18,796 nt of DNA, from assembly GCA_052168235.1 (NCBI GenBank), contig JBQLZK010000018.1, positions 85,943 to 104,738 on the forward strand. The letters run 5' to 3'. The translations under genes and the position numbers were made by a program. Positions 1,798-18,796 of the stretch are shown piece after piece. Every line of letters starts with the position of its first letter. Within the stretch, counting starts at the first letter, position 1. The notes under the pieces were generated by a model. The model saw only the letters and a list, made by a program, of their open reading frames with translations, had not been told where the DNA came from and did no database searches. The stretch is from Thainema sp. GTDB taxonomy: Bacteria > Cyanobacteriota > Cyanobacteriia > Phormidesmidales > Phormidesmidaceae.

Positions 1798-1914
1798 GTT
1801 TTTCTTGCCAAACGATTTTTGTCCATCATAGGCAACGGCCATCGGAAGTGCCAAAGATAATTCGCAGTGTTAACCTTCAGCCTTTTTTGATTCAGCCTTA
1901 AACTTAAGCAGCGA

Positions 1915-2439
1915 TTAATACAGCCAGCTTTGATACTCCAGTGCTTCCTCTTTCATGTCCTCATAAAGCCACACCATCCGGTCGAGAAACCACAGTTTAC
2001 CTGCATAAATCAAGCCGCTGCCAAACAGCGTCGGCCAAATTTGTAGTGCCGCCACGCCCCAGACTAAAAACGGGATGCCCAGCGCCGCCACTAGATTGAG
2101 GATGGTTGCCATTTGTTGATGATGAGCCGGAATTGGAACTTGGTCTTGATTTAATAGCACTCGTTCCCCAAGCACTGCTTTAGAAGCCCAGTTATCCGTC
2201 GATATAGGCCGCTCGAACAGCCTGGGATTGAGCCACATCCAGAATAATGCTGCTGCGATCGCAAAAATCGACCATATTCCCAACCATATCCGCGACCACA
2301 GAGCCAAAATCAATAGGGGTAAAACAGTGTTTCGCGTCCAAACACTCCAAGGATTAGCGTGCCGCTGCCATACTTCATCCGACATCGCAAAAGAAGCTGC
2401 TATTTGCTGACGCAGGCGGTGTCCAAGTGTTTTAGCCAT
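1915..2439 (-). CDS. DUF6653-like integral membrane protein
   Basis: Motifs MSDEVWQRHANPWSVWTR, WLNPRLF, NWASKAVLGER and GKLWFLDRMVWLY, plus several hydrophobic helices; family recognised from memory. Confidence 0.75.
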   Translation of the reverse strand: MAKTLGHRLRQQIAASFAMSDEVWQRHANPWSVWTRNTVLPLLILALWSRIWLGIWSIFAIAAALFWMWLNPRLFERPISTDNWASKAVLGERVLLNQDQVPIPAHHQQMATILNLVAALGIPFLVWGVAALQIWPTLFGSGLIYAGKLWFLDRMVWLYEDMKEEALEYQSWLY

Positions 2440-2717
2440 TATTCAAATACCCTAAATCAACTGAATCCTGTGTATAGCTGCGTTCTAACGGTATGACCAA
2501 CAGGAATTGAACCACGATGAAGCAGATCTACAACTAAAGACATAGGTTGTGGCCCAGTTATGCATTTACATCGCCACAAGATCTACCTTTCGACGAACGC
2601 CATAGGTGAATAGCATTGTTAAGTTTTATGTTGTGTTGCTCATTTGCGGTCATACCGAATGAGTAGTGCGCTCACCAGATAGATATGAAGCGTAAACATC
2701 GTTTAAGGACATTTTTT

Positions 2718-3377
2718 ATGAAGCGACTAGCAACCACAGCGGTTACCAAAAAAATCTTAGCCGGAATTTTAACGCTCGGCACCGTAGTTACAGTGTCAGC
2801 TTGCGCATCAGAGCAGGATACAGTCACGACTGCTCCTACAACTGAGGATCCTGCTGCAGTTGATGATGCAAATACAGCAGAAGAGCCAATGGCTAGCGAT
2901 ATGGAGACCGATGCCGCGGCCAACGGTTCGATTGTTGAAGTTGCATCCAGTGCAGGATCATTCAATACTTTAACGCAGGCTATTGAGGCTGCTGGGCTGA
3001 CTGAAACCCTCTCTCAAGATGGTTCTTCCTATACCGTGTTTGCCCCAACGGACGAAGCCTTCAATCAACTGCCGGAAGGAACGCTGGATCAACTGCTACT
3101 GCCAGAAAATCAGGAGCTACTCCGTCAGATTTTAACCTACCACGTTGTGCCGCAGGCAGTCACGTCCAGTGAAATCCAACCTGGCGAAGTTAGCACCGTT
3201 GAGGGTTCTCCAGTTAACCTCCAGGTTGATGGCAGCAGTGTCATGGTCAACGAAGCAATGGTAACTCAACCAGACATTGAAGCTAGCAATGGTGTAATTC
3301 ACGCCATTGATCAGGTCATTCTGCCACCACAGATTGCTGCTCAGTTAACGGGAGCAGGCGCAGGTAGCGAAGGATAA
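2718..3377 (+). CDS. Fasciclin (FAS1) domain lipoprotein
   Basis: FAS1 motifs YTVFAPTDEAF, ILTYHVVP and ASNGVIHAIDQVILP; signal peptide with lipobox VSAC; acidic linker. ATG 2718 follows AAGGA (ORF track start is 2685). Confidence 0.92.
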   Translation: MKRLATTAVTKKILAGILTLGTVVTVSACASEQDTVTTAPTTEDPAAVDDANTAEEPMASDMETDAAANGSIVEVASSAGSFNTLTQAIEAAGLTETLSQDGSSYTVFAPTDEAFNQLPEGTLDQLLLPENQELLRQILTYHVVPQAVTSSEIQPGEVSTVEGSPVNLQVDGSSVMVNEAMVTQPDIEASNGVIHAIDQVILPPQIAAQLTGAGAGSEG

Positions 3378-11370: not shown

Positions 11371-14300
11371 TCAAGCGAAAAGCGTATCCACTGCATCCGC
11401 GCTCAGCGGTTTAGAAAATAAATAGCCCTGTCCAAAGTGGCAACCCAGTTGCTTGAGCTGGGCAAACTGCTGCTTTGTTTCAATGCCTTCTGCGATCGCA
11501 TTGAGTCCTAACTGGTGACTGAGAGAGATGATGGTCTTGGTGATTTGCAGATGAAATGGGTCATGAATATCCTTGACAAACGACTTGTCAATCTTCAAGT
11601 TGTTCACAGGCATCCGGTGCAGATAGCTTAGTGAAGAGTAGCCTGTGCCAAAATCATCAACGCTAATTTGAATGCCCAGATTTTGCAGTTGCTTGAGCTT
11701 GTCAATTAGATCGAGTGAGCTTTCAACTAATAAACTTTCGGTTAGTTCCAGCGCGACATAGTTCGGTGGTAGACCTGTGCGCTCCAAAATATCTTGAATT
11801 TGCGGCACCACTGCGGGCATTTTGAGCTGCCGAACCGATACATTGATGCTGATTTTGAGAGTATGGGCGGCTTTGTGTCGGCGTCGCCAATTCATCATTT
11901 GCTGACAGGCCGCTTCCAGAATCCAGAGGCCCAATGGCACAATCAGTCCTGTATCCTCGGCGACGGGAATAAAATCGGAGGGTGAAATGAGACCATGCAG
12001 TGGATGTTGCCAGCGCAGCAGCGCCTCAAACCCCGTCAATTCCCCAGATTCAATCGCCACAATGGGCTGATAGTGCAGGAAAAACTCGCCGTTTTCCAGG
12101 GCTTTACGTAAATCTGTTTCCAAATGGAGCCGCTTGAGGACAGTCGTGTGCATGGAGGGCGTAAACACCATGTAGTGGTTCTTGCCGTTTGCTTTGGCTT
12201 GATACATGGCCAAGTCGGCATCGCGCAGCAAACTCTGAGGGTTGTGATACGAGTCCTGACCATACACAATGCCAATGCTGACGGTTGCGAACAGTTCATA
12301 ATCCTCAACCAGGATGGGCTGTTGAAAGACTTGCGAGATTTGCTCAGCCAGGATCAACGGCTGATTTTGGTTATCGATAAAGGTCGATAGAATGACAAAC
12401 TCATCGCCTCCCAGGCGAGCTAGAAAATCATTGGCGGACACTAGGCTTTGCAGCTTGCGGGCAATCATACACAGCAGCTGATCGCCAACGGGATGGCCCA
12501 AGCTGTCGTTGATCACCTTGAATTCATCAATGTCTAAAAAAAGAACCGCAAACGCTTGGTCGGGATGAGTGGGTGATTGGGCAAGGGTTTGTTCGAGCCG
12601 CTCCAGTAAAAAACTACGGTTGGGTAAGCCTGTTAATGAGTCGTGGCGAGCGTCATTCAGGAGTTGAGTTTGAAATTTGACCCGTTCCGTTACATCGCGC
12701 GCCGTCGTTTGATAGCCCACAACTTGCTGGTCTGCGGCCAGAATGGGTTTGACCAGCGTTTCGAGCCAAATGTAGTCACCATTTTGGTGGAGCATTCGAT
12801 GGTAGGTAACGGGGGCGGATTCCTCGCCGACCGTTGCCTGTTGAATCGCTTGCTGTAGTGTAGGCCAGTCATCTGCATGACAAAATTTTGTGGGTTGCTG
12901 ATTAATGAGCTCCTGTGGGTTATATCCCAGTAGGGTTTGACAAGACGGACTGACGTAGCTGTAGCTGTTGTCCATGCGATGCAGGCAAACCAAGTCGCGC
13001 ATGTTGTCGGCAACAATCCGATACAGTAATTCGCTCTGACGCAGTGCTGCTTGAGTGAGCTTGTGTTCTGCGATCTCCATTTGGGCTTGCTGGTAGAGGG
13101 CAGCCTGATGAACTGCGATCGCAACTTGAGTGGCCAACTGCTGGAGCAATTCGCTTTCCCACGTTTGCCACTGACGGGAATGGCGGCACTGGTGAACAAC
13201 CAGTAATCCCCACAAATTGTCTTGATGCAAAATTGGCACGACTAGCTTTGACTTCACCTGGATGTGCCGCAGCGTTTCCCGCAGGCATTCCGACATCTCA
13301 TCCTGCTCAACGTCGGTCACACAGCGCACTCGACCCTGGCGATACATCTCGTAACACTCTAGCGGAAACATATCGGGCGGTAGCGGCTGGGGCAGAATGG
13401 CGGTGCAGTCTGCTGCCACTGATTCGGTGATTATCTGGCCTGCGCCATCCGGATTGGTGCGATAGGTGACAACCCGATCGGCCTGGAGAAGTTGGCGCAC
13501 TTCGGCCACGGTTGTATCGAGGATTTCGGTGAGATCTAGCGACTGGCGAATTCGATGTGCGATCGCATTGACGATCTGTTCCCGCTCTTGCTGTTTGCGG
13601 CGGAATTCCTCAGTCTGCTTCCGCTCGGTGATATCAACGCCAATGCCCGTAATTTCAAACAGTTCACCCTGCTTATTGAAATGATTGATCGAACTCCAGG
13701 CAATCACCCGCTTTTCCCCTTGCCGAGTCGTGATCGTCATCTCGTAGTTCGTGACTTGCCCTTGTTCAGCAAAGTCCCGATACATTTGCTCAACCTGGCG
13801 ATAGTCATCACCGGGATACAAAATTTGCAGCCAGTTTTGGCCCAGCAGCTCGTCTGCTGTGTATCCAGTTATTTCATAGGTTGCCGGATTGGCAAATTTC
13901 GTAGTGCCGTCCGGCGCAATGCTCGCAATCAAAAGCGGTGCTGTGGTCACAATGTGATCTGTAAACTCCCGCGCCTCCGCTAACGCGGTCTGGATCTGCT
14001 TGGCCTCCGTAATATCATGGCGAATTGCCACATACTGAACTGGCTGTCCTTGGTCATCGACAAACGGCACAATTGTGATGTCAACCCAGTAGTAGCTGCC
14101 GTCCTTTGCTCGATTTTTGATCTCGTTGTGCCAGACTTTTCCACTAGAAATGGTTTGCCACATGTCCTGGAAAAAGGCTTTGGCATGATACCCAGAATTA
14201 ATGATGCGATGGGTTTGCCCGATCAGCTCTGCTCGGGAATACTGGGAAATTTCGCAGAATTTGTCGTTGACGTAGGTGATCCGTCCGGCTGCATCCGTAA

Positions 14301-15246
14301 TCGCGACGATAGAAGACTGATCCAGCGCAAACTTAATATTCGATGCTTCTTGCAGCGATCGCTGCAACCGCGCCTCTGTTTGCTTTTGCTGCGTCACATC
14401 GCGTGTGATCGCCAAATGCGCCCAGCGCCCTTCAGGCATTATCGGCAAAGGCGTCGCATGAGTTGACATAGATCGCCGATTTCCGCGACAGGTAATAATG
14501 TCGAACTCCAGCGTGCCCGATTCACCCTGACAAATCCGCTGATTCAATGCCTTAAACGCAGCTCGATCTTCCGGTGCGATTAAGCAATAAATTGATTCAC
14601 CAATCACCTCTTTGGCATCGGTTGCCTCAATTAACGCTAACCCAGCAGGATTCATATCTAGCAGAATGCCATTGGCATCAATAATTTTGAGGCACTCTGG
14701 CTGATTTTCAATAATGTTATGAAGGCGTTTTTCTTGCTGCGCTAGGATAGCCGCGCGCTTACGCAATTCCAACTGACTGACGATTTGACGACTGAGAATT
14801 TGTAGCGTTTCGATCTGTTCAGCCGTGACTGTCCGGGGTACATAGTCCATCACGCATAGGGTGCCAATCCGACAGCCATTGGGTGCAACCAGTGGAATCC
14901 CTGCGTAGAAACGAAATGGCAGGTTCTCTGCAACGAGTGACTGGGACGCAAATCGCGAATCAATTGCTAAATTTTCGACAATCAGTGGCTCATCCGAGCG
15001 AATGGCATGGTGGCAGCAGGTTGCTTCTCTGGGCATTTCCGAATGATTGAGCCCAACTTTTGCCTTGAACCACTGACGAGTTTGATCCGAGAGGCTGATC
15101 AGCGCAATTGGTGTTTGACAAAAGGTGGCGGCCAAACGGGTGAGATCATCAAATTCAGGTTCCGCACCAGAATCTAAAACGTCGTAGTCACGGAGTGTTT
15201 GTTGCCTTTCTTGTTCTTCAAGATCGTTTCGAAAGGACATTGGCAT
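11371..15246 (-). CDS. Multi-sensor c-di-GMP cyclase/phosphodiesterase: GAF-PAS-PAS-PAS-GAF(cyanobacteriochrome)-PAS-GGDEF-EAL
   Basis: GAF (RFYAGIPL, GTLCVMD); four PAS/PAC units ending in DVT/DIT; second GAF (ADRVVTY, LWGLLVVHQC); HDSLTGLPNR and ARLGGDEF; EALLRW, DDFGTGYSS and AEGIE. Confidence 0.95.
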   Translation of the reverse strand: MPMSFRNDLEEQERQQTLRDYDVLDSGAEPEFDDLTRLAATFCQTPIALISLSDQTRQWFKAKVGLNHSEMPREATCCHHAIRSDEPLIVENLAIDSRFASQSLVAENLPFRFYAGIPLVAPNGCRIGTLCVMDYVPRTVTAEQIETLQILSRQIVSQLELRKRAAILAQQEKRLHNIIENQPECLKIIDANGILLDMNPAGLALIEATDAKEVIGESIYCLIAPEDRAAFKALNQRICQGESGTLEFDIITCRGNRRSMSTHATPLPIMPEGRWAHLAITRDVTQQKQTEARLQRSLQEASNIKFALDQSSIVAITDAAGRITYVNDKFCEISQYSRAELIGQTHRIINSGYHAKAFFQDMWQTISSGKVWHNEIKNRAKDGSYYWVDITIVPFVDDQGQPVQYVAIRHDITEAKQIQTALAEAREFTDHIVTTAPLLIASIAPDGTTKFANPATYEITGYTADELLGQNWLQILYPGDDYRQVEQMYRDFAEQGQVTNYEMTITTRQGEKRVIAWSSINHFNKQGELFEITGIGVDITERKQTEEFRRKQQEREQIVNAIAHRIRQSLDLTEILDTTVAEVRQLLQADRVVTYRTNPDGAGQIITESVAADCTAILPQPLPPDMFPLECYEMYRQGRVRCVTDVEQDEMSECLRETLRHIQVKSKLVVPILHQDNLWGLLVVHQCRHSRQWQTWESELLQQLATQVAIAVHQAALYQQAQMEIAEHKLTQAALRQSELLYRIVADNMRDLVCLHRMDNSYSYVSPSCQTLLGYNPQELINQQPTKFCHADDWPTLQQAIQQATVGEESAPVTYHRMLHQNGDYIWLETLVKPILAADQQVVGYQTTARDVTERVKFQTQLLNDARHDSLTGLPNRSFLLERLEQTLAQSPTHPDQAFAVLFLDIDEFKVINDSLGHPVGDQLLCMIARKLQSLVSANDFLARLGGDEFVILSTFIDNQNQPLILAEQISQVFQQPILVEDYELFATVSIGIVYGQDSYHNPQSLLRDADLAMYQAKANGKNHYMVFTPSMHTTVLKRLHLETDLRKALENGEFFLHYQPIVAIESGELTGFEALLRWQHPLHGLISPSDFIPVAEDTGLIVPLGLWILEAACQQMMNWRRRHKAAHTLKISINVSVRQLKMPAVVPQIQDILERTGLPPNYVALELTESLLVESSLDLIDKLKQLQNLGIQISVDDFGTGYSSLSYLHRMPVNNLKIDKSFVKDIHDPFHLQITKTIISLSHQLGLNAIAEGIETKQQFAQLKQLGCHFGQGYLFSKPLSADAVDTLFA

Positions 15247-15674
15247 TTACCCTAGGCGACGAAAACAGCCTATTTGCCTCAGAAGCTCCGGCAATACTAC
15301 TGATCGGCAAGTATGCTATCCCCTCATTAATCCCTATTTTTGCCTTGCTCCAACAGAACCATAAGACACTTAACAACGCCAACAGCTCACGCCTGGGGAT
15401 TGCGTCGTATTCTTACTCATATTCTTAATCGTATGCTGGGCCGTATAGCTTGCACCTGGCCAATTAACTCACAGGGTCGATCTCGTTCGATCACAAATGT
15501 AATCGGTAGACTACTCTCCTGTGCCTTGCTAGGCTAGAAGCCGAAACGGCCCTTTCGCGGGACACAGTGGAATAACCGTTTCATACACAATCTGCTGATC
15601 AAACCAGTTTTTATTTGGGTTTTTCTTTAGCTGAATTTAGATCCGCTTCTGATACAGGCTGTGAGTTGATAAAG

Positions 15675-17270
15675 ATGATTAACCGTCGCCGATTTGTACA
15701 ACTGTCTGGTGGTGCGGCTTTAGGCGTTGCCGGTTTGAGTCAGGTGAGCGTGGCTCAAACGACTTCGGAATCCAGCGTTATCCAAAACGAACCGATGCTG
15801 GAGATGCAGGCATGGCAGTTTGGTGGCAAACCCGTCAATAAGTCTCAGCTTGGGCGGCTTTATTTTCTAGATTTACAGGAAAATCCCCAGCGTCATCCGG
15901 TGCGCCAGGTGGAAGCGGGACGAGTGCGATCGCAACCGCCTGCGCTGCTACCGTGTGCAGTTGCTTTGAAATTACCAGTTGACGGCTTCGGCAATGTCAC
16001 GCTGTATGCGGACAATCAGGGCCAAGGCTACGATGTGACCGATTTCCCCCTGAATTTGAATCAGGCATTTGCTCAAACGCGACTGTACCGAGTTCGTCAG
16101 ACAGTTGAACAGTGGCAGCAGCAGGGTTTCGTCGTACCCGCCGCCACGCTACTGCGGCTTCAGCGGGCCGATGTTGCTTTGGGTCGGGGCAATCAGGCCA
16201 GCGATCTCAGTGAGCAACTGCACTGGTGGCAGGAATCTCTGCTGGACAGCCTTTGGGCTGGTGAAGAGGTTGCGATCGCACGGGCCAAACAGCGAATTGC
16301 CCAACAGGAACAACGTGCCGATTTTCTGTTTGGCGGCAACTTTTTTCGCTATCCCAGCGGCGGCGAAATTTATAATCAGCGCTTTCGCGACATCTTCAAC
16401 TATGCGACGGTACCCTTTTACTGGCGCTCATTTGAGCCAGAACCAGGACAGCCGGACTACCTCCGGATTGACAGTATGACCGCATGGCTACAGCAAGCAG
16501 GTATTGTGGCCAAGGGACATCCGCTGGTGTGGTTCCACCAGGCCGGAGTTCCTGACTGGATGCGGGATGTGTCCTTTGGCGAGATGCAGGACAAGTTGCG
16601 ATCGCGCATTCTCGATATTACGCAGCGCTACCGGGGTCGCATTGCGGCTTTCGACGTAATGAATGAGGCCAACAATGTGCCGTGGGCGAATGAGCTGGGT
16701 TATTCCCTCGATCAGCTCATGGAAATCACCGATCTGGCCTGCCGCACCACTCAACAGGGCAATCCTGATGCGACTCGGGTGGTCAACTACTGCTGCCTTT
16801 GGGCCGAAGAAGTGGCCGAGTCAGAAACTCCAGCGATCAGCCCCTATCAGTTTGTGCAAAACTGCTTTGCTGCCGACATTTCCTTTGAAGTGATTGGTCT
16901 TCAGCTTTACTATCCTCACCAGGATATGTTTGAAATTGACCGGATGCTGGATCGCTTTGGTCAGTTCGGCAAACCAGTTCACGTCACGGAACTAGGTGTG
17001 GCATCCGCAACCGAAAACGATATGGATGCCCTAATTCATAAACCGGGCGGACGCTGGCACGCCCCTTGGAGTCAGGCGGTACAGGCGGACTGGGTAGAGC
17101 AATTTTATACGCTGTGCTTCAGCAAACCTCACATTGAAGCCGTGAGCTGGTGGGATTTAAGTGACATCGGCAATTTTTGGCCGCATGGGGGCCTAGTGGA
17201 TGATGATATGCAGCCCAAGGAAGCCTATCGACGTTTACAGCAGCTTATTACAACATGGCGACAGCTATAG
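15675..17270 (+). CDS. Tat-exported glycoside hydrolase family 10-like protein with N-terminal extension
   Basis: MINRRRFVQ twin-arginine signal; KGHPLVW, FDVMNE (acid/base Glu), HVTELGV (nucleophile Glu) and PKEAY. ATG 15675 is preferred over TTG 15615. Confidence 0.85.
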   Translation: MINRRRFVQLSGGAALGVAGLSQVSVAQTTSESSVIQNEPMLEMQAWQFGGKPVNKSQLGRLYFLDLQENPQRHPVRQVEAGRVRSQPPALLPCAVALKLPVDGFGNVTLYADNQGQGYDVTDFPLNLNQAFAQTRLYRVRQTVEQWQQQGFVVPAATLLRLQRADVALGRGNQASDLSEQLHWWQESLLDSLWAGEEVAIARAKQRIAQQEQRADFLFGGNFFRYPSGGEIYNQRFRDIFNYATVPFYWRSFEPEPGQPDYLRIDSMTAWLQQAGIVAKGHPLVWFHQAGVPDWMRDVSFGEMQDKLRSRILDITQRYRGRIAAFDVMNEANNVPWANELGYSLDQLMEITDLACRTTQQGNPDATRVVNYCCLWAEEVAESETPAISPYQFVQNCFAADISFEVIGLQLYYPHQDMFEIDRMLDRFGQFGKPVHVTELGVASATENDMDALIHKPGGRWHAPWSQAVQADWVEQFYTLCFSKPHIEAVSWWDLSDIGNFWPHGGLVDDDMQPKEAYRRLQQLITTWRQL

Positions 17271-17281
17271 TTTTTGTAGCC

Positions 17282-17362
17282 TTTGTAAGTTGAGTACAAC
17301 GAAATGAAACCAACGATTCCGAGGAATTATTAAGTCTTGTATACTCGACGCCAACTTACAAA
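17282..17362. repeat. Degenerate REP doublet (REPIN-like) between convergent genes
   Basis: Terminal inverted arms TTTGTAAGTTG (17282-17292) and CAACTTACAAA (17352-17362). The left unit GTAAGTTGAGTACAACGAAATGAAACCAAC resembles the GTAGGTTGGG...GAAACCCAAC repeats I recall from cyanobacteria. Confidence 0.45.
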
Positions 17363-17412
17363 AGCGAAACTAGACCCTACAACAGAGTCTAGGAATATAC
17401 CCTGTTGTTAAT

Positions 17413-18096
17413 CTAAAATATTTGCTTTTTCAAATTTATTAGAGCATTTTCGGCAGCCTGTTTTTCCGCTTCTTTCTTATTTCGGCCTTTACCTTCACCA
17501 CAAAGTTTTTCATTTACGTAAACCTTAGCCGTGAATTCTGGTTCATGATCTGTACCACCTGTTTTTTCCGTTACATATTTAGGTGGAGAAGTTGCGCCAT
17601 TAGCTTGAGCAAGTTCCTGAAATTTGTTTTTAGAGTCTACGCTTGAACGTACTATAACAACGTTTTTAGGAACGGAATTGAATAATTCCTCTATAAGTGG
17701 ACGAAGCACTTCAATATTTTTATCGTGATCTAAATAATAGGCACCTACAACAGCTTCAAAGGTACAACTTAATAAGTTGGGATTGTGATAACCACCTTCT
17801 TTAATTGCACCCTGTCCTAGGCGCATTCTAAAATCTAGTCCAACTTCAGTTGCAAATCGAGCCAGCTGTTTTTCATCAACAAGAGCTGATCTCCGGCGAG
17901 TCATTTCATCTTCTTCCATCTCCGGATAAATTTTGTATAAATACTCACCGCTAATGAAATTCAAAATAGCATCGCCAAGAAACTCTAATCGTTCATTATG
18001 ACCTGCTTCTTCAGGATTTTCATTAACATAGGAGCGATGAGTCAATGCATGGCGCAATAGCTTCTCATCATTAAATTTCAATAGTTTGTGCATCAC
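17413..18096 (-). CDS. rnc: Ribonuclease III (probable accessory paralog) with dsRBD
   Basis: ALTHRSY, signature NERLEFLGDAIL, TFEAVVGA, and C-terminal dsRBD (KNKFQE...GKGRNKKEAEKQAA). Start at GTG 18096 or ATG 18093. Confidence 0.93.
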   Translation of the reverse strand: MMHKLLKFNDEKLLRHALTHRSYVNENPEEAGHNERLEFLGDAILNFISGEYLYKIYPEMEEDEMTRRRSALVDEKQLARFATEVGLDFRMRLGQGAIKEGGYHNPNLLSCTFEAVVGAYYLDHDKNIEVLRPLIEELFNSVPKNVVIVRSSVDSKNKFQELAQANGATSPPKYVTEKTGGTDHEPEFTAKVYVNEKLCGEGKGRNKKEAEKQAAENALINLKKQIF

Positions 18097-18124
18097 AGTT
18101 CCTGTTATTTCAATTTGTTGTATA

Positions 18125-18179
18125 GGTAGTGCTACATCCTCAATTACCTTATGGTTGGTTATAACACTACCAATCGAGG
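18125..18179 (-). promoter_or_regulatory. Structured leader of rnc with two overlapping alternative stems
   Basis: 12-bp stem 18171-18160 / 18136-18125 (2 G-U) and 8-bp stem 18179-18172 / 18145-18138 (1 G-U) on the minus-strand RNA. Confidence 0.5.
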
Positions 18180-18196
18180 TTGTTCAGCTTATCAGC

Positions 18197-18433
18197 TTAA
18201 TTGCTAATTGCTTTTGATTTTTTAGGAGGATATAGACTATCACCTCTAGATCTATTGCACTCTAGGCAGGAAAGACGGAGATTTTCTAAAGAGTTCGATC
18301 CACCTTTACTGCGAGGTACAAGATGATCCAGTGTCAATTTTTTGAGCGGTAAATGTATCTCACACCACCAGCAAGACAGCCCATATATACGAGCAAGATG
18401 CTGCTTTTTACCTTGTCTCCGCTTCGGATTCAT
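18197..18433 (-). CDS. Small HNH endonuclease (78 aa, zinc-binding McrA/HNH type)
   Basis: CWWC, TLDHLVPRSKGGSNSLENLRLSCLECNRSRG; ATG 18433 (ORF track TTG 18448). Confidence 0.9.
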   Translation of the reverse strand: MNPKRRQGKKQHLARIYGLSCWWCEIHLPLKKLTLDHLVPRSKGGSNSLENLRLSCLECNRSRGDSLYPPKKSKAISN

Positions 18434-18487
18434 ATTTCGCCATTCCAATGTTTAAGTGAACTAGCATCGGAATATCAATAAGCATGC

Positions 18488-18511
18488 AAAAAATGCGCTC
18501 CTTGAGCAACA
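18488..18511 (-). terminator. Putative weak intrinsic terminator/attenuator upstream of HNH
   Basis: Minus-strand UGU(U)GCUC-AAG-GAGCGCA followed by UUUUUU. Confidence 0.4.
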
Positions 18512-18524
18512 AATTATTTCTTGC

Positions 18525-18702
18525 ACTTAAAGTAAACGTCTCAAGCGCACTACCTCCAAGCCTCAAACCAGCGCACATCCAAGGTGCTGAGCCAGCCATT
18601 CATTTGAGAAATTTCTCTTGCTTAAACCAATGCCAGATCAACACACTGGACATGCATTAGTCTGAGGCGCAGAGGTAGTACCCATGAGACGAACACCTAA
18701 GC
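18525..18702 (-). ncRNA. Unannotated long rod-like RNA hairpin (~75-nt arms, 28-nt loop region)
   Basis: Arms 18702-18629 and 18600-18525 pair almost continuously on the minus strand with ~14 G-U pairs. Examples: CGUCUCA/UGAGACG, GUACUACCUCU/GGAGGUAGUGC, GCCUCAGACUA/UGGUUUGAGGC and UGCAUGUCCA/UGGAUGUGCG. Confidence 0.75.
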
Positions 18703-18796
18703 TTTAGATATTCGTCTACATGATTCCATCAAAGCATATGCATTGGTTCTTCCGGGTTTAAGGTGAATTTCGTATACTAGGCGACAACCAGTAGAC

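Follow-up and report, generated by a model that had tools for sequence, protein, structure and literature searches.

A recurrent cyanobacterial module of a long leader hairpin, a minimal HNH nuclease gene and an accessory RNase III gene

The stretch of DNA analyzed here (the window) comprises 18,796 nucleotides of the Thainema sp. genome GCA_052168235.1 (G000), spanning positions 85943-104738 of contig JBQLZK010000018.1 (C18), and its end coincides with the end of the contig. Close to this end, three parts are encoded on the minus strand: an RNase III gene (rnc), a gene for a 78-aa HNH nuclease, and a structured leader RNA upstream of the HNH gene. These three co-oriented elements had been proposed as a candidate module from the letters of the window alone (the sequence-only reading), and all of them were confirmed (Table 1). 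Based on comparisons across genomes, hairpin, HNH and rnc form a real, recurrently linked module, and the cassette moves horizontally and is confined to cyanobacteria. We propose, with about an even chance of being right, that the leader is a cis-acting RNase III target (an operator) that keeps both HNH and RNase III itself low. The joint occurrence of hairpin, HNH and extra RNase III suggests a self-controlling circuit of a kind not yet described; a literature search, with subscription journals and supplements outside its scope, found no publication on an HNH-RNase III operon or its hairpin.

Linkage across genomes and the two proteins

Searching an HNH alignment against one genome per species yielded 23 cyanobacterial loci and six distant Bdellovibrio HNH loci. 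An rnc match directly followed the HNH gene in 22 of the 23 cyanobacterial loci, although imperfectly in three: only the double-stranded RNA-binding domain (dsRBD) is present in L035, the gene is split by a frameshift in L034, and it is truncated by the contig end in L025. In the 23rd locus, L039, the contig stops 80 nt past HNH. A long hairpin was likewise found upstream of HNH in 22 loci, in 21 by similarity to the window hairpin and in L032 by fold; the L032 hairpin has another sequence and is stronger still (-113.7 kcal/mol, z-score -17.7). L035 was the locus from which the upstream long hairpin was absent. The linkage suspected from the window was thus borne out on both sides of the HNH gene. 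Among 78 flanking open reading frames (ORFs) there was no common neighbour; they ranged from housekeeping genes to mobile and defence types, including BrnT, ParE, a C5 methylase, DUF4238, integrases, Uma2, DUF5615 and transposases.

In an even sample of the phylum, the HNH family occurred in 31 of 401 genomes and in 20 of 156 genera. For the 19 close HNH loci outside the window's own genome (at least 53% identity over approximately 70 residues), rnc lay at most 1.5 kb downstream in 16, the exceptions being L063, L066 and L075. A long hairpin was located upstream in 17 of them (six by profile and 11 by fold; weak in L066, and with L079 not folded individually). None of ten remoter loci, L082-L091, whose HNH is 44-54% identical, had rnc within 1.5 kb downstream, and among those tested, which did not include L089, no upstream long hairpin was found save a branched structure in L090 (z -9.3). 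When the hairpin alone was used as a BLAST query, matches were obtained in four of 400 other genomes, each in single copy and each immediately upstream of an HNH match. The hairpin is also single-copy in its own genome and was never seen apart from HNH in the BLAST of these 400 genomes. The HNH family comprises at least 283 clusters at 90% identity, annotated merely as "HNH endonuclease" or "McrA"; the named ones are cyanobacterial except for one metagenome-assembled genome (MAG) labelled Methylacidiphilales.

Six of the ten distant-HNH loci, L082-L087 (genus g37 and relatives, 47-51% identity), carry a conserved ORF pair after HNH, with sizes of approximately 207-231 and 221-237 aa. The second ORF gave a DUF1822 match in L082, the sole one scanned. 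By gene content, these loci are a different operon, without RNase III and hairpin.

According to the available part of PMC10989914, cyanobacteria carry one to three RNase III genes per genome, and that part notes no link to HNH. Since RNase III is universal, the window gene might be an ordinary housekeeping rnc standing by chance beside unrelated neighbours. This is almost certainly wrong: chance adjacency is refuted by a linkage that recurs, between unrelated flanks, in 22 of 23 loci of the first survey and 16 of 19 of the second. Moreover, there are two further RNase III genes in the own genome, and a genome of the same genus lacks the module-type one.

The HNH protein matches PF01844 (E 1e-11) and contains the motif CxxC...DH...N...CxxN with two Cys pairs; these pairs and the residues H37, N51 and N60 are conserved in 21 sequences. 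The structure model (mean per-residue confidence, pLDDT, 76.5) consists of a strand-strand-helix core preceded by a basic N-terminal helix. A fold search with this model gave no PDB match at E up to 0.001; the best, weak match was the Gme HNH nicking endonuclease, PDB 4H9D (E 0.08, TM-score 0.42), with 35% identity over 74 columns, and Cas9 HNH domains ranked next. The HNH protein is probably a DNA-nicking enzyme, and it may be harmful or toxic. HNH fusions longer than 138 aa were not found at E up to 1e-10 in a search that also missed the 166-aa fusion of L035 described below.

The rnc product scored 228.5 bits against TIGR02191 (class 1 RNase III; cut-off 166.25) and matches PF14622, PF00636 and PF00035. 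Its start codon is ATG, with an in-frame GTG option at 18096, giving a product of 226-227 aa (226 from ATG). For numbering, we take E38, E41, D45, D114 and E117 to be the catalytic acids of Escherichia coli RNase III. In the module enzymes, E34, E37, D41 and E113 are invariant and the dsRBD is kept; in place of D114, the window enzyme has Cys and its relatives have Ser. This substitution was considered as a module-specific sign of an inactive enzyme and rejected, because the type A paralog of the host shares the Ser. The best-scoring solved sequence match was Drosha (E 2.7e-35), with Thermotoga RNase III nearly equal (1.2e-34). In 10 of 21 loci, the HNH and rnc genes share 8-23 nt; in the others they are 2-156 nt apart. 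The ratio of nonsynonymous to synonymous substitution rates (dN/dS) was 0.04-0.13 for rnc (nine of ten pairs) and 0.08-0.19 for HNH (the six of ten pairs with unsaturated dS); where intact, both genes are under purifying selection.

Structure of the leader RNA

For the 291-nt leader (18431-18721), the fold has an energy of -124.5 kcal/mol (z -10.25), which none of 200 shuffles matched; for the whole stretch 18449-18796, the values were -132.3 kcal/mol and z -7.6. The non-coding parts had been described as densely structured in the sequence-only reading, which holds for the leader, whereas the spacer between HNH and rnc is only mildly structured (z -3.0). The inverted arms of the leader hairpin lie at 18537-18590 and 18638-18691. 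In the long-hairpin consensus fold of 24 leaders, there are 59 pairs, 29 of which show compensatory changes, and 94.6% of cells pair, compared with 28-44% when the partners are slid. In a shuffle control of this covariation, inflated by the relatedness of the sequences, none of 500 reached any of five measures. Additionally, the sense fold is more stable than the antisense fold in 23 of 24 leaders (mean difference -21 kcal/mol; 8-18 G-U pairs), indicating that the structure is selected in an RNA co-oriented with the genes and not in DNA.

The consensus fold of the full leader, built on 22 sequences, contains a helix P1, a helix P2, the long hairpin on its GUCUCA/UGAGAC base, and a variable P3. 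The 5' strand of P1 lies near the leader 5' end and its 3' strand approximately 20 nt before the ribosome-binding site; a compensatory change to C-G is found in L036. One pair of P2 is CG in 11 sequences, UA in seven and AU in two. In the window and L024, P3 resembles a weak terminator with a U-run; in L038 it does not. An anti-Shine-Dalgarno (anti-SD) UUCC can form a small stem with the SD sequence, present also in the fold of the window leader; in the same 22 leaders, 83.6% of its cells pair versus 23-58% when slid, with two compensated pairs. This pairing gives moderate support to a predicted switch between P1 and SD sequestration. Upstream of the leader, a TGnTTnnAT motif is kept at the -10 position in the leader alignments, and L052 has a TTGACA -35 box 16 nt upstream of it. 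A small hairpin, ACGAAUAUC/GAUGUUCGU, that RNAalifold had produced from a short alignment was dropped, as it had no compensatory changes and the covarying P1 and P2 use the same bases.

In Nostocaceae-type and other variant leaders, the arms differ wholly in sequence and length (128-186 nt, -45 to -97 kcal/mol, z -6.6 to -14.4). The arm pairing and the stem base are nevertheless kept, and the base of L062 and L032 is doubly compensated (GUCGCA/UGCGAC). Across loci, the duplex is 50-90 bp long with conserved bulge positions. Full replacement of the arms while pairing and base are kept is the selection expected from a generic enzyme specific for double-stranded RNA (dsRNA). The Nostocaceae-type leader of L070 (approximately 1250-1400) carries an extra insertion of about 130 nt, itself hairpin-forming, between the long hairpin and HNH.

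The hairpin could also be a product in its own right, that is, a stable non-coding RNA or a small-RNA precursor that acts in trans or assembles with RNase III and HNH into a particle. Its length is that of a primary microRNA (pri-miRNA), the terminator-like P3 and its U-run separate hairpin from HNH in the window and L024, and the in-frame HNH-dsRBD fusion of L035 suggests that HNH can work beside a dsRNA-binding domain. In a search of the whole window, all Rfam families stayed below their gathering scores; with the E limit raised to 10, only five sub-threshold, chance-level rows were returned, namely small nucleolar RNAs and MIR7724, a plant microRNA precursor that is the sole near-match (29.6 bits, cut-off 100). 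However, the arms are not conserved between subfamilies and so cannot carry a fixed trans target, the U-run is missing from L038-type leaders, L035 itself is without the long hairpin, and P1 joins the 5' end to the region by the ribosome-binding site, which is typical of a cis element. We therefore consider a product role very doubtful, and nothing was found in favour of the processing into trans-acting small RNAs that had been suggested from the window. Among indexed sequencing runs, no RNA run with the module sequence was found; seven rows, all from DNA or metagenomes, contained at most 0.24 of its words.

Insertion, horizontal transfer and decay

Both compositional traits stated in the sequence-only reading were reproduced. 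The guanine-cytosine (GC) content is 0.37-0.39 in 17201-18400 compared with approximately 0.47-0.56 across the preceding 3 kb (38% for the segment overall versus about 50% in its surroundings). All 21 HIP1 sites (GCGATCGC) of the window, where 0.42 are expected, end at or before 16605, leaving the module segment without any. In the same-genus genome (G001), which has neither HNH nor the module-type RNase III, similarity to the window ends at 17271, the first base past the stop codon of a gene of the glycoside hydrolase family 10 (GH10). The gene next in order in G001 sits in G000 at the end of another contig, beside the start of an IS5-like transposase gene, indicating that the insertion site is crowded with mobile elements. 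This transposase gene start is found at the end of contig C54 (52333-52460) and also in C167. By this alignment, the module segment is an insertion relative to the genome of the same genus.

The extent of 17413-18796 assigned to the module in the sequence-only reading stands for the most part; only the final 52 nt (18745-18796) fall outside it, being the terminal part of a multi-copy repeat. At least 12 other contigs end in the same 52-55 nt or so, with a different flank each time, and the repeat adjoins the module promoter, taking the place of the -35 region that relatives have there. A longer form of at least 75 nt, beginning GGTTCTTCCGGG, is present at the ends of at least 13 G000 contigs, again with different flanks. 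Besides the window, repeat-bearing contigs include C4, C47, C50, C64, C77, C126, C134, C135, C184, C188 and C200, and C184 has two copies 136 nt apart. The repeat is probably the terminus of an insertion sequence (IS) or of a miniature inverted-repeat transposable element (MITE) with an unassembled interior.

There are three RNase III genes in the own genome and two in most of 40 relatives. In the RNase III tree (a quick search on 31 rows, from which L034, L035 and L039 were excluded by a length filter or for lack of rnc), 25 module RNase IIIs and three long-branch relatives without the module form one clade (SH-aLRT 99), and the hosts' own type A paralogs are placed outside it. The nearest rnc to that of the window, at 83% identity, is from a Calothrix MAG, whereas the own genome is placed in the same family as Leptolyngbya sp. 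BC1307. Thus, the gene tree disagrees with host relatedness. Searches of mobile-element collections yielded no close relative: no RNase III match at E up to 1e-40 in the plasmid collection, 12 records in the phage collection that are all below 60% identity and none cyanobacterial, and only remote HNH matches in IMG/VR (at most 55% identity over partial lengths).

Decay takes several forms. The HNH gene is frameshifted or mutated and the hairpin retained in L042, L044 and L045. In L022 and L053, rnc is intact, and HNH and hairpin are gone or present as remnants: the L022 HNH carries a stop, and L053 has a 49-nt leader remnant beside an HNH remnant. The module-clade rnc of L054-L056 stands without a trace of HNH or hairpin, and in L057, which has rnc without HNH, the hairpin is absent too. 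Conversely, L063 and L075 have hairpin and HNH without rnc, so that the hairpin tracks HNH more than RNase III.

These cycles of invasion, decay and loss (also in L035), the conflict between rnc tree and host relatedness with a Calothrix gene as nearest relative, and an insertion boundary exactly past the stop codon of a neighbouring gene could together be read as the marks of a selfish element. HNH would then be a free-standing homing-type or nicking endonuclease that spreads the cassette, with hairpin and rnc as cargo or expression control and no benefit to the host. We judge this improbable, since no target site or empty site could be paired by flanking homology and the cassette is not bounded by terminal repeats. 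In addition, rnc shares only 44-51% identity with the host type A paralogs compared (L010 and L057), too low for homing by homology; purifying selection on HNH is as strong as on rnc; and the compensatory upkeep of a 50-90-bp RNA hairpin would be left unexplained.

Some loci show other rearrangements or additions. In a Prochloron MAG (L035:4001-4501), a deletion fused HNH in frame to the dsRBD (166 aa), with loss of the RNase III catalytic domain. In a Richelia MAG (L034:5089-5721), a second RNase III-like gene (210 aa, no dsRBD) comes right after the frameshifted module rnc. In L080 (G184), hairpin and HNH are followed by two successive RNase III genes; the first of these (1844-3058), between HNH and the module-type rnc, encodes a 404-aa Swt1-like HEPN-RNase III-dsRBD protein. 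The same order was suggested by tblastn matches in L068 and L069, with a type A-like rnc between HNH and the module-type rnc.

A defence or toxin-antitoxin-like circuit, with HNH as effector or toxin and RNase III as a type V-like antitoxin that cuts the toxin leader, is a tentative possibility, well below even, and would extend the operator proposal: phage dsRNA or loss of RNase III would de-repress HNH and lead to DNA nicking and abortive infection. This is consistent with the patchy distribution of a horizontally transferred cassette, the frequent mobile and defence neighbours listed above, the HEPN-RNase III-dsRBD gene inside the L080 module with the same order of tblastn matches in L068 and L069, the weak HNH matches to PtuB of Septu, and the way the hairpin tracks HNH. 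On the other hand, no PADLOC model was matched by the module RNase III, the module was not found in the phage, plasmid and IMG/VR collections, and many loci lie among housekeeping genes. The neighbourhood signal is itself weak, because cyanobacterial genomes are rich in toxin-antitoxin genes anyway. In a related version, which we rate as rather unlikely, the module would be a dsRNA sensor-effector: the leader hairpin would compete with foreign dsRNA, for example from convergent phage transcription, for the dedicated RNase III, whose titration would leave the leader uncut and so release the HNH nickase and more RNase III for a response at the RNA and DNA levels or abortive infection.

Upstream of the module in window order are a gene for a 1291-aa sensor protein (11371-15246, minus strand), with GGDEF- and EAL-like C-terminal parts judged from its translation only, and the gene of the 551-aa GH10 protein (15615-17270, plus strand; Pfam E 5e-24). 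Both have a host-like GC content and HIP1 sites. No tRNA or tmRNA was detected in a search of the window.

Table 1. Coordinates of the module and adjoining features in the window
Feature	Position	Strand	Basis or remark
Accessory RNase III gene (rnc)	17413-18093	-	Catalytic domain and dsRBD; third RNase III paralog of the genome
HNH-rnc spacer with modest hairpin (arms 18122-18139 / 18157-18174)	18097-18196	-	z -3.0
Minimal HNH nuclease gene, 78 aa	18197-18433	-	PF01844 match; basic N-terminal helix, then beta-beta-alpha-metal core
Structured leader RNA, about 290 nt, ORF-poor	18434-18721	-	Fold energy and consensus fold of 22 leaders
Helix P1, closing the leader	GAAUAUC 18707-18713 with GAUAUUC 18470-18476	-	Consensus fold
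Long hairpin, 153 nt, about 52 pairs, base GUCUCA/UGAGAC	18538-18690	-	Inverted arms and covariation
Helix P2, extending the long hairpin	to about 18525-18702	-	Covarying
P3, short hairpin and U-run, terminator- or attenuator-like	18496-18508	-	Similar site in L024
Candidate SD-sequestering hairpin	18440-18476	-	Anti-SD UUCC overlaps P1 3' strand; SD GGAAUGG 18440-18446
Candidate extended -10 element, TGC TTTGAT	18728-18736	-	Consensus match only; predicted start about 18721
Intrinsic-terminator-like hairpin at operon end	17370-17392	-	10-pair stem, then TTTCGCTTTT
Multi-copy repeat end (IS- or MITE-like), outside the module	18745-18796	-	Recurs at other contig ends

A putative RNase III operator and its relation to known systems

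The operator proposal takes the leader as a cis-acting target because the duplex is the sole selected feature of the arms, the 5' end is held in P1, the anti-SD overlaps P1, and rnc is predicted to be on the same transcript. The predicted operon would run from its own promoter through the leader of approximately 290 nt and the minimal HNH gene to the accessory RNase III gene. In the intact leader, P1 would hold the 5' end and the ribosome-binding site would be usable. Cleavage of the long duplex by RNase III would remove the 5' half and dissolve P1, after which the freed UUCC would pair with the SD, the message would decay, or both. The output of HNH, and of the downstream and often translationally coupled RNase III, would then drop. 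Such a loop would set a low level of HNH, probably a DNA-nicking and potentially harmful enzyme, and the cassette would be independent of host enzymes through its own RNase III. Titration of RNase III, for instance by excess dsRNA, would de-repress both genes. The gating of a toxic HNH by RNase III, one of the possibilities raised in the sequence-only reading, fits the predicted anatomy and the fact that the hairpin follows HNH.

Whereas the parts, their linkage, the RNA structure, the horizontal transfer and the purifying selection are observed, the cleavage, the sign of its effect, and the activity and toxicity of HNH are all inferred in this operator proposal, and several points weigh against it. 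Known RNase III operators are far shorter than this duplex of 50-90 bp, and the invariant stem base and conserved bulges hint at a recogniser more specific than a generic dsRNA nuclease. Taken together, the role of HNH, the conserved base and the great length of the duplex are not explained by an operator model. Support for the SD-sequestering helix is only moderate, and the effect of cleavage could be repression or activation. Cleavage is a prediction, a contact between HNH and RNase III is hypothetical, and the D114 equivalent is Cys or Ser in the module clade, though this is not special to the module.

The cassette gives a context in which the function of a "third" cyanobacterial RNase III can be tested, these paralogs being poorly understood. 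It also brings to light a large RNA structure with strong covariation that Rfam 15 lacks, and the replacement of arms with pairing kept is a natural experiment on what bacterial RNase III or a partner recognises. A toxic and dsRNA-inducible HNH would make the cassette a compact defence or addiction module of a new kind, and also a simple, portable dsRNA-responsive expression switch. Should the sensor-effector version hold, bacteria would possess an RNase III-based equivalent, free of Argonaute, of the dsRNA immunity of eukaryotes.

Among known systems with an HNH protein, HEARO/OMEGA likewise has a structured RNA directly upstream of an HNH-domain gene, and the window HNH is most similar in sequence to the HNH of IscB and Cas9. 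IscB has approximately 400-500 aa, with a RuvC domain split around HNH and a HEARO or omega RNA upstream. In contrast, the 78-aa window protein lacks RuvC, a bridge helix and a PLMP domain, and the RNA upstream of its gene is simply a long hairpin with no guide segment. An identity as IscB was rejected, as the match (36.6 bits, cut-off of NF040563 175) covers the HNH domain only; this agrees with the earlier view, which set IscB aside because of the small size of the HNH. The link to HEARO/OMEGA that had been raised at the same time found no Rfam match, including none to HEARO at E up to 10. Septu consists of the ATPase PtuA and the HNH protein PtuB of approximately 200-300 aa; it was rejected because the PtuB matches are weak (best E 1.3e-7, in the HNH motif only), rnc is the sole other gene, and the 78 flanking ORFs give no conserved partner. 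Retrons with an HNH effector combine a reverse transcriptase and msr/msd RNA with the HNH gene; here the TIGR02646 score was 25.9 bits (cut-off 52.15), and no reverse-transcriptase family was found among the same 78 ORFs. Since these defining features were tested and are lacking, the module is not IscB/OMEGA, Septu or a retron. The Gme HNH of Geobacter metallireducens (4H9D) is likewise a stand-alone minimal HNH, of approximately 80-100 aa, with Mn-dependent nicking; however, the match to it is weak, and the title of the 4H9D entry names no RNA or RNase III partner.

On the RNase III side, cyanobacterial HEPN-RNase III-dsRBD proteins were predicted to be defensive "two-headed RNases" (Anantharaman et al. 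2013, PMC3710099, in its accessible part). These are likewise accessory cyanobacterial RNase IIIs proposed to deal with dsRNA in conflict systems, and one of them lies inside the L080 module. Unlike them, the window RNase III has no HEPN domain, and the accessible part of PMC3710099 mentions neither HNH nor a hairpin. The substrates of Drosha and Dicer, such as pri-miRNAs, share with the leader a long imperfect hairpin with regularly spaced bulges and, here, an adjoining RNase III. This is an analogy only, as the module has no Argonaute or other user of small RNAs.

The closest parallels are found in bacterial regulation by RNase III. The rncO leader of the E. coli rnc message has an Rfam family; in the window, no family reached its gathering score, and rncO was not among the five rows at E up to 10. 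As in the module, rncO is a structured 5' leader before an RNase III gene (Bardwell 1989 and Matsunaga 1996, as cited in the available part of PMC5371410). The same part of that source describes that E. coli RNase III cuts a structure in its own 5' untranslated region and that abundant targets can titrate it away. By analogy, the module RNase III would cut the leader and limit its own message, in a loop titratable by other dsRNA. Unlike rncO, the hairpin is several times longer, a nuclease gene stands between leader and rnc, the RNase III is an accessory, mobile paralog, and the hairpin follows HNH.

GhoS/GhoT is a type V toxin-antitoxin system in which the toxin is silenced by an RNase. In Bacillus subtilis, RNase III silences the prophage toxins txpA and yonT, according to the available parts of PMC5371410 and PMC10989914. 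An endoribonuclease would likewise hold the message of a harmful protein low in the module. Unlike in these systems, the predicted target is an intramolecular hairpin in the leader of HNH itself rather than an antisense pair, RNase III is encoded downstream on the same transcript, and the toxicity of HNH is only presumed. Judged by analogy, the module would work most like rncO-type autoregulation and RNase-silenced toxin messages.

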